A stretch of DNA of 59,949 bases from a virus (taxonomy: Duplodnaviria > Caudoviricetes): the IMG/VR virus record IMGVR_UViG_3300038825_001248, positions 1 to 59,949 of that record. The stretch is one strand, 5' to 3'. Positions 44,762-46,894 of this stretch are shown here, piece by piece. The position numbers and the translations under genes are program-made. Position 1 is the stretch's first letter. Each line of letters opens with the position of its first letter. The notes below the pieces were generated by a model, which had not been told where the DNA came from, did not search any database, and saw only the letters and a list, made by a program, of their open reading frames with translations.

Positions 44762-45067
44762 ATGGCACAGAAAATAAGTGAAGACACAAACGTAACATTA
44801 GACTTAAAAACTATAGGTCTTATTGTTGGCGGCGTTGTTTCACTTACAAGTATGTATTTTGTATTAAAATCAGACATAGCTCTTGCTATGGAAAAGCCAG
44901 AACCTGAAGTCTCTAAAATTGAATGGTCTTATAAAGACGAGCTGGTTAGATCTGAAATATCTAACACAAACGAAAAAGTTTTAGGGCTAGAAAAATCAGT
45001 AGAAGAAATTAAAGAACAACTCAACAAAATTGATGAAAGATTATATGAAATCAGTAAACAGAGATGA
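44762..45067 (+). CDS. Single-TM coiled-coil protein
   Basis: N-terminal TM helix, C-terminal heptad repeats. Confidence 0.65.
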   Translation: MAQKISEDTNVTLDLKTIGLIVGGVVSLTSMYFVLKSDIALAMEKPEPEVSKIEWSYKDELVRSEISNTNEKVLGLEKSVEEIKEQLNKIDERLYEISKQR

Positions 45068-45387
45068 GATGTGCAATAATTGCTTTTTTCCTGACATGTG
45101 TCAGTTTTGCTCAAACTGATATTGAAATAATTCAGTTTAGCGCTTCTTTTGTTAAAGACAAAGAGATTTCATTGAAAGGTTTTAGATATGATACTAAAAC
45201 CATATACATGACAAACTCACAAGATATATTCAAAAAACATAACGTTAAATATATTCCCACCATTATATTGTTTTATAATGAAGAAGAATATTTTAGAGTT
45301 GAATCAGGCATTTCACTAACATTGCCTGAAGACTCGATAGAACAATTAGAACAAAAAATTGAACAAATAATAGAAAGTAAATTTTAA
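45064..45387 (+). CDS. Secreted thioredoxin-fold-like protein lacking CxxC
   Basis: Signal peptide SFA/Q; IIQFSASF and NVKYIPTIILF resemble Trx strands and the cis-Pro loop. Confidence 0.55.
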   Translation: MRCAIIAFFLTCVSFAQTDIEIIQFSASFVKDKEISLKGFRYDTKTIYMTNSQDIFKKHNVKYIPTIILFYNEEEYFRVESGISLTLPEDSIEQLEQKIEQIIESKF

Positions 45388-45389
45388 AA

Positions 45390-46664
45390 ATGAATAGAAA
45401 AGAAAAAACCGAAAAGTTTGCTACCAACGCATTAATATATATAATGATATTTATTTTATTAATGTTTTTTAGTTTGGGAGCACAAGCTCAAGTTATTGAT
45501 GATTCAAAAAAACTTGAAAATAAAATTGTAAAAAAATATAAAGTAAAAAATTTTTTTGAGGATGTGTACAAAGATATACTCAAATACTCCACTATATATG
45601 TAGCTGGTGATATTGATAACCCAAAAGAAAATCCAAAAGATTACTTCGTTAGAACAAATCCAAACGGTAATTTGTATTCAGCGCCTGTGGTGGTTGATGG
45701 AACAGACTACTATGATTTCGATTACAGATATGGCGTTGGTATACGAAAGCTAGCTAGGTTTGATTATGAAATAAAAGGAAAGCACTACTACGATGGCACT
45801 GAAAATAACATTGGTTTGTCAGCACCAAACTCTCCTGTAAATGGATTAGAGTACACTATTCATTATGAAAAAGAAAGATCAAGAGATGAAATATTTACAA
45901 ATCACAGGTACTTTGTAAAGCATAGCGGAGAGTTTCATGTGGTAAAACTTGAAAGCAGAAAACAAGGAAAAGTAGATTTTAATTACAAGTCTGCCGAAGT
46001 GAGAGCAAAACTACCTATAGGTAAAAAATTTAGTATTTCCGCTGGCGCAATCTACAGAACTCATGTGCGTCCTTATGGATACAATCCCGTAGAAATATGG
46101 TTAAATGAAACAAATTTAGAAGGCCAGATTATAAACCCTTGGTACACGTTGGGGTTTCAATATGGTTATGATGATGTTTATTACACGCAAGAAGATCAGT
46201 TTGGCAATGAAGTGTCTGACTGGTACTGGATAGATCCTGAAGGAGAAATCGTAGCTCATACAGATTTAGAGTTTCGTGACACGGTTTTTGCTGAACTAAT
46301 GAACAGATTTAACCATGAAGTTTGGGATGGCTTGGATACGTTTGGCGTGGTTAGCCCAATCATAGGTTTTGATATGTATCACTACAAACGAAATTTCTGG
46401 CTTCACGCCTACGGTTCTTATTTATTACCTTATCACAAATACGTTCAAGGAGATGTTGATTTTAGTTATCTAAACAGAAACAATTGGGGGTTAGGAGGAT
46501 TAAGACAAGATTCTGAATTAGAGCAGTGGGAGGATTGGCAGGCAGGCCTGTCATTTGGATGGAAACTTTCTAAAAGTCTGGGAGTGTTTATTGAAGGAGA
46601 ATACACAAAGTTTTGGGATTCCGAAATTTATCAGTCATCAGTTGGTTTAAACATTAGATTGTAA
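45390..46664 (+). CDS. Putative outer-membrane beta-barrel protein
   Basis: Signal peptide AQA/Q; many amphipathic aromatic strands; terminal strand YQSSVGLNIRL. Confidence 0.6.
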   Translation: MNRKEKTEKFATNALIYIMIFILLMFFSLGAQAQVIDDSKKLENKIVKKYKVKNFFEDVYKDILKYSTIYVAGDIDNPKENPKDYFVRTNPNGNLYSAPVVVDGTDYYDFDYRYGVGIRKLARFDYEIKGKHYYDGTENNIGLSAPNSPVNGLEYTIHYEKERSRDEIFTNHRYFVKHSGEFHVVKLESRKQGKVDFNYKSAEVRAKLPIGKKFSISAGAIYRTHVRPYGYNPVEIWLNETNLEGQIINPWYTLGFQYGYDDVYYTQEDQFGNEVSDWYWIDPEGEIVAHTDLEFRDTVFAELMNRFNHEVWDGLDTFGVVSPIIGFDMYHYKRNFWLHAYGSYLLPYHKYVQGDVDFSYLNRNNWGLGGLRQDSELEQWEDWQAGLSFGWKLSKSLGVFIEGEYTKFWDSEIYQSSVGLNIRL

Positions 46665-46894
46665 TGGACAAGATACCTAACGATAAACTTTTACATTTCT
46701 TTTGGGGAGGTGTTTCGGCTTTTCCTTTAATATACTTGTGGTCAATTAATGGATTTATTTTTTCCGTAACTTTGTATGCAGCTAAAGAAATTATTTATGA
46801 TTGGTGGATGGGCAAAGGAAATCCAGAGTTTATGGATTTTATTTTTTCTAGTGTGCCAGCGGTATTTTATATAATATTAAAATTAAATTTATGA
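46664..46894 (+). CDS. Small VanZ-like membrane protein
   Basis: DKLLHF...KE..D...D pattern with hydrophobic helices. Confidence 0.6.
   Translation: MDKIPNDKLLHFFWGGVSAFPLIYLWSINGFIFSVTLYAAKEIIYDWWMGKGNPEFMDFIFSSVPAVFYIILKLNL

Follow-up and report, generated by a model that had tools for sequence, protein, structure and literature searches.

Results

Genes of the lysis-linked block

The stretch of DNA analysed here, which we call the window, is the whole of the IMG/VR virus record IMGVR_UViG_3300038825_001248, that is, 59,949 bases from an uncultured marine tailed phage with an estimated completeness of 98%. Our subject is a trio of consecutive + strand genes within it, which encode a 101-residue protein with a predicted inner-membrane anchor (p101, 44762-45067), a 107-residue exported protein with a putative minimal thioredoxin (Trx) fold (p107, 45064-45387) and a predicted outer-membrane beta-barrel of 424 residues (p424, 45390-46664). 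The trio is part of a packed block of seven + strand genes, 44347-47807, which begins with a 137-residue protein (p137, 44347-44760), continues after the trio with a small membrane protein of 76 residues (p76, 46664-46894), and ends in an endolysin of the Peptidase_M15_3 type (46891-47352, 153 residues) and then a holin of the phrog_3427 family (47349-47807, 152 residues). This block is the late lysis region of the phage. Its genes meet in 4-nt ATGA overlaps, 1-nt overlaps or 1-2-nt gaps, and a gap of 95 nt separates its start, at p137, from the fibre gene upstream. An initial annotation of this DNA, made from the letters alone, had described a tightly coupled cassette upstream of endolysin and holin, and in these respects it holds: the open reading frames (ORFs) lie at the positions it gave, the coupling is evident from the overlaps and short gaps, and the last two genes of the block are recognised by PF08291, phrog_894 and phrog_3427.

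The match of the endolysin to PF08291 has an E-value of 3.8e-15 (56.4 bits, the cut-off being 23.2) and that to phrog_894 one of 9e-27; by hydropathy the protein has neither a signal nor a transmembrane segment. The holin gene overlaps the endolysin gene by 4 nt. Its product matches phrog_3427 at 4.3e-18, has a hydrophobic peak at residues 93-111, gives a weak match to GTA_holin_3TM (0.0014), and in tblastn searches finds annotated holins adjoining endolysins in Vibrio phages; it is a holin by family membership, its function being assigned by annotation.

A predicted inner-membrane coiled-coil protein

The first protein of the trio, p101, has a short N-terminus and one hydropathy peak (residues 17-35), followed by a conserved PxPxx...EFxYKDELxR stretch and a C-terminal region in which V, L or I recur at strict 3-4 heptad spacing (residues 73-97). 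The single peak and the heptad spacing agree with its earlier description as a transmembrane coiled-coil protein. Because the flank that follows the transmembrane helix is more acidic than the N-terminal flank, p101 probably adopts an N-in/C-out topology, as read from the flanking charges. With that topology, p101 has the layout of the inner-membrane component of a spanin (i-spanin), namely an N-terminal transmembrane helix and a periplasmic coiled coil encoded in a lysis cassette. The family is large, 1351 of 1353 candidates being homologues at E<=0.001. There is no significant match in Pfam, PHROG or NCBIfam, and the PDB gives only generic coiled coils. Among 17 relatives compared with PHROGs, the commonest matches are to families of unknown function (phrog_1009, 10/17), and a few are to the holin families phrog_1296 (4/17) and phrog_10340 (1/17), at E-values of 1e-4 to 1e-3.

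A thioredoxin fold without active-site cysteines

The gene adjoining p101 encodes a Trx-fold protein with a signal of the signal-peptidase-I type, not a lipoprotein. In the p107 family 17 of 27 members match thioredoxin (PF00085) at E<=0.01, with a best value of 3.1e-07, and the family profile matches thioredoxins in the PDB down to E 7.2e-11. The window copy alone is below the threshold for PF00085 (E 0.017, 15.6 bits against 23.5), and the fold is therefore assigned at the level of the family. The cis-Pro of thioredoxins is invariant (P65 in p107). The only cysteines of p107 are at positions 3 and 12, both inside the signal peptide, and in none of the 27 family members is there a Cys pair at the aligned active-site position. 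At family level the Trx-like protein without CxxC of the initial annotation is thus what we find. We read p107 as a minimal form of the fold, in which the N-terminal strand and helix of the long family members appear to be missing. Its signal peptide ends SFA/QTD (the slash marks the cleavage site), with Gln at +1, and its C-terminus is ...SKF.

A predicted phage-specific outer-membrane barrel

Whether p424 is a barrel had been named in advance as a point on which the cassette interpretation could fail, and structure prediction and two structure searches all point to a membrane barrel. The AlphaFold2 model, built from an alignment of 29 rows, has a mean predicted local distance difference test score (pLDDT) of 76.8 and a predicted template modelling score of 0.65, and contains about 12 strands of 9-16 residues each. 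Significant Foldseek matches are NanC, BamA and EspP. In a VIA search, which is independent of Foldseek and covered 48,161 chains, the top 50 matches listed are all membrane barrels, with Z from 10.8 to 6.3, the best being CymA (Z 10.8, root-mean-square deviation 5.5, 208 aligned residues), OmpG (10.2), EstA (10.2) and Tsx (9.9). Consistent with these matches, the family alignment has hydrophobic/polar alternation in most strands. The signal peptide spans residues 1 to about 33 and ends AQA/Q or LGA/Q; with this cleavable signal and a closed antiparallel barrel, p424 belongs, by prediction, among outer-membrane beta-barrels. As regards the C-terminal beta-signal, which in such barrels closes with an aromatic residue, the last strand of p424, ...VGLNIRL, has Leu at its end, and the final residue of homologues, which follows a conserved G-x-N, is L, F, K or R.

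While 2315 homologues of p424 are found at E<=0.001, no Pfam, PHROG or NCBIfam model matches, and no specific barrel family is indicated. The nearest ESM Atlas clusters are unnamed and 100% viral; named families of outer-membrane barrels appear there at scores of 0.92-0.93, which is the level of a lead. Taken together, p424 is predicted to be a phage-specific outer-membrane beta-barrel of no described family.

Two regions of p424 deserve comment. Counting strands back from a periplasmic C-terminus would place the N-terminal helices (residues 43-64) in the periplasm, and likewise the segment 121-151 (45750-45842). This segment is among the best conserved parts of the protein, R119, K120, F124 and G136 being nearly invariant, and it is modelled with a pLDDT below 50. 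A role as a docking site for a partner protein would fit, and we regard the loop as a candidate. The second region is an insertion of 92 residues (226-317; 46065-46340, + strand), which the initial annotation had called acidic and aromatic. The description is apt: there are 19 D+E against 3 K+R, and 18 of the 92 residues are W, Y or F. Modelled alone, the insertion forms an alpha/beta domain with a pLDDT of 86.0, and strand parity and order in the AlphaFold2 model would put it on the cell-surface side. Among solved structures none is related (best VIA Z 3.5, Foldseek E >= 0.15), and we dropped the idea of a recognisable enzyme or lectin domain for this reason. We also looked in the p424 alignment for a Ser/His pair like that of OMPLA. 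S322 is nearly invariant, but no invariant His was found, and S322 and H339 were judged, without coordinates, to be too far apart along their hairpin.

Co-occurrence across phage genomes

The cassette interpretation could also have failed if its genes did not occur together in other genomes. They do, as far as the trio is concerned, and they do so next to lysis genes. p101 occurs in at least 523 stretches of IMG/VR, and the loci that we fetched with p101 alone are the best 80 of the 523 confirmed stretches (71 unique p101 sequences). Wherever there was room for it, in 63 of 63 loci, p101 is followed at once by a Trx-like gene. For the barrel and the lysis genes the testable loci were the 45 in which p101 is flanked by 2.9 kb or more on either side; a barrel lies within 1.6 kb of p101 in 44 of them, and an M15 endolysin or a phrog_3427-like holin within about 4 kb in 40, the latter being a lower bound since other endolysin types were not seeded. 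The barrel is upstream of p101 in 22 loci and downstream in 22. Since gene order varies while the genes stay together, the linkage has been kept through rearrangement. A set of 41 loci fetched with the barrel gives the same picture.

Across 126 related loci p101 has homologues in 119 and p424 in 116, as compared with only 7-27 loci for the flanking fibre, GroEL and basic-protein genes (11-25 for fibre and GroEL). This difference indicates a module that travels across different phage backbones. Most of the loci, like the window, carry a separate phrog_3427 holin. The endolysin is exchanged, M15 for amidase, with no change in the place of p101 and the Trx-like gene directly 5' of it. Amidases are found at L105:7626-8060 and L108:2221-2631 (L numbers denote related loci), and a different endolysin of about 157-160 residues, with the N-terminus MKLEVLR..., at L115:9250-9723 and L076:1849-2331, so that the p101/Trx pair travels with at least three endolysin types.

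In two lineages (L105/L216 and L108) the barrel is absent and the order is p101, Trx-like gene, endolysin (amidase or M15), holin. These lineages bear on the C-terminus of the Trx-like protein. Among 93 unique Trx-like proteins recognised by BLAST, 90 end in Phe and 2 in Tyr, with one exception, in the L105 lineage; the L108 protein is outside this set, since alignment alone recognised it. For 88 of the 92 that end in F or Y there is a barrel ORF in the same locus, and the other 4 lie at contig ends. In the barrel-less lineages the proteins end ...TTE, ...STD or ...SYR. This suggests that the terminal aromatic residue is tied to the presence of the barrel, on just two independent negatives. 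Searches with the Trx-like proteins of L105 and L108 returned close relatives only.

One apparent fusion of two of the proteins was set aside. In the 320-residue metagenome protein P0391 a truncated Trx domain is followed by a barrel whose own signal peptide is still present, now in the interior of the chain, and the whole is probably an artefact of assembly, deletion or frameshift rather than a natural fusion.

A paralogue of p101 beside the endolysin

p101 has a family of paralogues with an N-terminal transmembrane helix, an invariant EFRIKWPRGE..LPDDA motif and a coiled coil; p101 and this paralogue share 28% identity over 89 residues (E 1.6e-6). The paralogue is present in at least 519 stretches of IMG/VR, and in most of 58 unique loci it adjoins the endolysin or lies between endolysin and holin (examples are L115:8347-8670, L108:280-612, L085:6684-6998 and L118:6697-7017, with further ones in loci L128-L207). 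It occurs with the trio or, often, without it, in some loci without any other recognised holin, and p101 and the paralogue also co-occur within one genome. The adjacency of the paralogue to endolysin and holin marks the p101 superfamily as a lysis-cassette family in its own right, and the paralogue may serve marine phages in general as a third lysis gene.

Spanins and lipoproteins

A two-component spanin, of the type of lambda Rz/Rz1, consists of an i-spanin and an outer-membrane lipoprotein, the o-spanin. The initial annotation had noted no lipoprotein o-spanin here, and within the window our searches agree. A lipobox regular expression applied to all six frames of the window returned only three antisense junk ORFs, and neither the lipoproteins of related loci nor the ORF resembling a unimolecular spanin that one of them carries (see Discussion) has a homologue in the window. 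Thus we found neither a lipoprotein o-spanin nor a unimolecular spanin there. Apart from a separate lipoprotein gene, lipoB, in L115, no lipoprotein gene is embedded in the genes of p101 or its paralogue. Nor do the trio proteins have sequence similarity to the spanin families of PHROG or Pfam.

Accessory genes and surroundings of the block

Two genes of the block lie outside the conserved trio. p137, which has two hydrophobic segments (39-57 and 62-80) and a charged tail, gives no significant family in Pfam, PHROG or NCBIfam, has homologues in just 7 of the 126 related loci, and is accessory. p76 is accessory to the lysis region as well. A DK-x-LHF motif (DKLLHF in p76) links it to longer homologues of 114-128 residues that have signal peptides of the Q-rule type discussed below, and the family accounts for 32 ORFs among the 126 loci, at variable positions. 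The label VanZ-like, which p76 had been given, finds no support. p76 does not match the VanZ profile (PF04892), nor any Pfam family at E<=5, and PHROG and NCBIfam offer nothing significant. Two of its homologues reach a family, though far short of the cut-offs: VanZ for one (E 0.077; 14.1 bits, where 30.1 are required) and DUF2279 for the other (E 0.0099; 17 bits, where 28.6 are required).

Tail-fibre genes lie on either side of the block, at 41420-44251 and 49477-50901. Between the holin and the second of these there is a run of genes for small, very basic proteins of 44-96 residues (47807-49437), which is conserved with the lysis block in the nearest relatives and found elsewhere in more distant loci such as L030 and L108. 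Other genes of the window encode a GroEL (35344-36939; PF00118, 2.3e-67), a 1660-residue protein (6847-11829) whose first ~230 residues match the crAss muzzle protein (PF25731, 3.3e-16), a BT4734-like/PriCT primase (26251-28680), an SNF2 helicase and fibres tipped with Peptidase_S74.

A scan of 43800-49600 for promoters and terminators gave counts at or below shuffle expectation. The motif TAnnTTTG, the -7 element of Bacteroidota promoters, is present at 44254-44261, in the gap before p137. It also occurs at 1447, 4953, 12610, 35310, 38016, 49438 and 52632, and stands 20-90 nt 5' of several gene starts. In the window as a whole it is only mildly enriched, with 122 matches against 94 +/- 10 expected (2 of 100 shuffles reach 122). 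Short contigs from RNA libraries (four runs from three studies), in which carry-over of DNA is possible, cover parts of the block, the p137/p101, p76/endolysin and endolysin/holin junctions among them, and leave parts of p101, p107 and the first third of p424 uncovered; we claim neither expression nor silence from them.

Host and distribution

Among Bacteroidota, Sec substrates cleaved by signal peptidase I carry Gln at +1 (the Q-rule), as given in an excerpt of PMC5837995. The initial annotation had noted two signal peptides of this kind in the cassette. We tested for them with a crude pattern, namely Q directly after a small residue where the hydrophobic region ends, which is neither a cleavage-site predictor nor SignalP. 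p107 and p424 both have the pattern, as do 92 of the 92 unique Trx-like N-termini and 88 of the 96 unique barrel N-termini in related loci. These signal peptides indicate that the host is most likely a member of the Bacteroidota, and the matches to the muzzle protein and the BT4734-like primase point the same way.

In the cultured phage records of INPHARED, from which this genome or very close ones may be absent, blastn with 44300-47900 gave no match, tblastn with p424 none at E<=0.01 and tblastn with p101 none at E<=1. Near-identical cassette DNA is found in marine, seawater, estuary and viral metagenomes from at least five studies. An alignment-based scan of the genome_contigs set, whose reach is limited to fairly close relatives, returned 5 matches, all on phage-sized or short contigs that had been binned into metagenome-assembled genomes. 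The labels of these genomes (Woesearchaeota, Maricaulis, Bacteroidetes, Arcobacter) belong to four unrelated taxa, and the scan gave no host signal and no cellular family.

A literature search, with supplements outside its range, found no description of such a trio. As regards the lysis of related phages, according to an excerpt of PMC12596118 the spanins recognised in Bacteroidetes phages are all of the unimolecular type. The part of PMC8776804 available to us reports spanins in just two flavobacterial phages, Ingeline and Nekkels, both unimolecular, and for most cultured flavobacterial phages only an endolysin, with or without a holin. The available text of PMC10136315 mentions the spanins and lysins of Crassvirales in general terms only.

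Discussion

We class the trio as a putative accessory of phage lysis that is directed at the outer membrane and consists of uncharacterised families; its kind is abundant and gave no match among the records of INPHARED. That its three proteins are inherited together and are directed each to a different layer, inner membrane, periplasm or outer membrane, is well supported. The initial annotation had gone further and proposed an inner-to-outer-membrane complex. Of this proposal the three envelope-addressed proteins that are inherited together remain, their union in one complex is a conjecture, as is its role, and the 76-residue gene is no longer part of the core.

What might such a trio do? Four observations suggest a machine for the last step of lysis, namely the tie to holin and endolysin, the i-spanin-like character of p101, the neighbouring genes for outer-membrane-targeted proteins and the lack of a canonical spanin in the window. 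As to the third of these, p101 repeatedly adjoins genes for outer-membrane-targeted proteins of several unrelated kinds, among them lipoprotein genes that p101 or the paralogue touches or overlaps in some loci. Also in favour are the co-occurrence in loci fetched with p101 alone, the linkage that survives rearrangement and exchange of the endolysin, the terminal F or Y of Trx-like proteins beside barrels, the conserved loop of p424 and the published statements on the spanins of Bacteroidetes and flavobacterial phages. We therefore tentatively consider the trio a lysis-associated, three-part functional analogue of a spanin, and would put this at somewhat below an even chance. On this reading p101 would be anchored in the inner membrane by its one N-terminal helix and would extend a partly coiled-coil domain of about 65 residues into the periplasm, where the coil would bind p107, a Sec-exported and redox-dead adaptor. 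In Trx folds without redox activity the cis-Pro face is typically where peptides bind. p107 would in turn dock on p424, perhaps at the loop 121-151 or by its terminal Phe, and p424, made by the phage and inserted in the outer membrane by the beta-barrel assembly machinery (BAM) of the host, would complete a link that passes through the peptidoglycan. With the wall gone, by the action of holin and endolysin, the trio would destabilise or fuse the outer membrane, with barrel and adaptor standing in for the lipoprotein o-spanin. The types of the proteins, the targeting signals, the co-occurrence and the tie to the lysis genes come from the analysis itself; the binding among the three proteins, their topology and the disruption of the outer membrane are what we infer. 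A complex prediction for residues 37-101 of p101, 18-107 of p107 and 34-424 of p424, each with its own alignment, was run twice and scored 0.00 both times, with the mark at 0.32; it ran without controls and counts neither for nor against binding.

It is useful to set the trio beside known systems. With Rz/Rz1 it shares the location of its genes in a lysis cassette near endolysin and holin, a small inner-membrane protein of type II with its coiled coil in the periplasm, a second gene that overlaps the first by 4 nt and encodes an exported protein, and a component anchored in the outer membrane. However, p107 has a Trx fold and a signal of the signal-peptidase-I type where Rz1 is a lipoprotein, the anchor is the 424-residue barrel, there are three parts rather than two, and the periplasmic part of p101 is shorter than that of Rz. 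With the unimolecular spanins, of the type of T1 gp11, the trio shares a presumed task and a genomic neighbourhood but no element of architecture, and the window has no such gene. The thioredoxin likeness of p107 lies in the profile match, the cis-Pro loop and the retained position of the active-site strand. The redox motif of thioredoxin is WCGPC. In its place the p107 family has residues like F-N/V-K-D/E-N, and there is no Cys pair in the mature protein. A signal peptide moreover directs its export, and a conserved K/Q/R/N-Phe stands at its C-terminus.

A number of observations weigh against a spanin analogue. Of 118 loci, 24 have a lipoprotein-like ORF no more than 2.5 kb from p101. About 20 of these 24 belong to a family of Pro/Tyr/Asn-rich lipoproteins of 134-150 residues, the gene for which overlaps the start of p101 by 31 nt in seven loci, or else follows the endolysin (L025:8244-8687, L002:4254-4673, L092:5000-5431 and about 17 more loci). 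In L002 and L008, both close relatives of the window, this lipoprotein gene lies between endolysin and holin, and it is absent from the window. A second lipoprotein family, of 186-196 residues, abuts p101 in L112 and overlaps the paralogue in L115. In L076 the segment 1301-2331, directly 3' of barrel, p101 and Trx genes, holds a two-TM (transmembrane) holin-like gene, a 71-residue ORF and an endolysin. The ORF (1632-1847) combines a lipobox, a Pro-rich linker and a C-terminal transmembrane helix, the textbook layout of a unimolecular spanin, and is the only one to fit that layout among the ORFs of the 126 related loci. With such a gene beside it, the trio is at best redundant there for disruption of the outer membrane. 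The barrel-less phages, moreover, keep p101 and the Trx-like gene, so that the barrel is dispensable for whatever the pair does in those two lineages. Taken together, the unimolecular-spanin gene of L076, the extra lipoproteins in about 20 loci and the barrel-less variants weaken the idea that the trio replaces a spanin.

Further points of this kind concern the proteins themselves and the sample. The p101 paralogue often stands beside the endolysin without any outer-membrane partner, and a few relatives of p101 weakly match the holin families mentioned above. The periplasmic part of p101, at about 65 residues, is short. The conserved domain of p424, if it is indeed on the cell surface, is not obviously needed by a fusion machine. 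No fused (Rosetta-stone) form was found, the search with p107 being restricted to longer proteins, and the 80 loci are the best of 523 matches, with more distant relatives unsampled. Our reserve about the spanin analogue reflects, above all, L076, the barrel-less lineages, the partnerless paralogues, the limited span of p101 in the periplasm and a surface domain that has no evident part to play.

The surface domain would be accommodated if the barrel itself were the effector, displaying its acidic, aromatic domain for surface modification, superinfection exclusion or protection of progeny. The barrel could then cover or obstruct a receptor, or prevent virions, once released, from adhering to debris, with p101 and p107 aiding in its assembly or control. 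The well-folded, conserved 92-residue domain on what strand parity makes the surface side would suit this role, as would the position of the block between two sets of tail-fibre genes and the coexistence of a unimolecular-spanin-like gene with the trio in L076. There is also a precedent, since phage-encoded outer-membrane proteins beside tail genes are known, lambda Lom among them. Lom, of the Ail/Lom family, is like p424 a phage barrel destined for the outer membrane of the host and encoded near tail-fibre genes. However, p424 has about 12 strands rather than 8, a large insertion, no match to a Pfam outer-membrane-protein family, and a tie to lysis genes and to two partner genes. Exclusion genes are, besides, usually variable morons, whereas the trio is found in 116-119 of 126 loci as compared with 11-25 for its neighbours, and it is tightly linked to endolysin and holin. 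The adjacency of p101 and the Trx-like gene, which is complete (63/63) and persists even without the barrel, would also be left unexplained. On balance we consider a surface role rather unlikely.

The pair that persists without a barrel could instead act in the timing of lysis, p101 and its paralogue being holin- or antiholin-like, the Trx-fold protein a periplasmic regulator or sensor, and the barrel the source of a signal from the outer membrane. In T4 the holin T works with the periplasmic antiholin RI, and there is a likeness in that a protein with a single transmembrane helix and a periplasmic domain is followed, among lysis genes, by a small secreted periplasmic protein. The likeness that we see is one of layout, and the trio differs in its added barrel and separate holin. 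The occurrence of p101 and its paralogue in one genome, as holin-antiholin pairs can occur, and the paralogues that lie directly beside endolysins in some loci without another recognised holin, agree with a role in timing, as do the PHROG matches of p101 relatives to holin and antiholin families. These matches are weak, though, and fewer than those to phrog_1009, the window and most loci already have a phrog_3427 holin of their own, and a dedicated outer-membrane barrel would have no evident purpose. A role in timing thus seems to us quite unlikely. Finally, the three genes may have no common function, the barrel being an independent gene for a porin, for transport or for manipulation of the host that happens to lie in the same late operon, and the Trx-like protein chaperoning some other client. 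This would be in keeping with the inferred nature of the complex, with the dispensability of the barrel in two lineages, and with the nearest named ESM Atlas clusters, which at lead level are generic outer-membrane-barrel families. Against it, the linkage of the barrel (44/45) survives inversion of gene order, the terminal F or Y of the Trx-like protein tracks the presence of the barrel, and no cellular homologues turned up in the genome_contigs scan, the nearest Atlas clusters being wholly viral. We regard the absence of a common function as improbable.

If the spanin analogue is the right reading, how far could it extend? A more ambitious version holds that marine Bacteroidota phages possess a three-component machine for disruption of the outer membrane, with p101 as the i-spanin-like part, a redox-dead Trx adaptor that works through its terminal Phe and peptide-binding face, and the barrel in place of the lipoprotein o-spanin, and that the p101 superfamily, the paralogue included, supplies the third lysis gene so far missed in many marine phages without a spanin. 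We consider this version doubtful as a whole.

How phages of Bacteroidota, and other phages considered spanin-less, breach the outer membrane is largely an open question, and the trio is a concrete and abundant candidate for an answer. It would add to the known phage repertoire a family of outer-membrane barrels that is confined to phages and has a surface domain without a match, and a thioredoxin fold recruited as a non-redox adaptor of the envelope. More generally, it would add Q-rule signal peptides as a marker by which uncultured marine phages can be assigned to Bacteroidota hosts.

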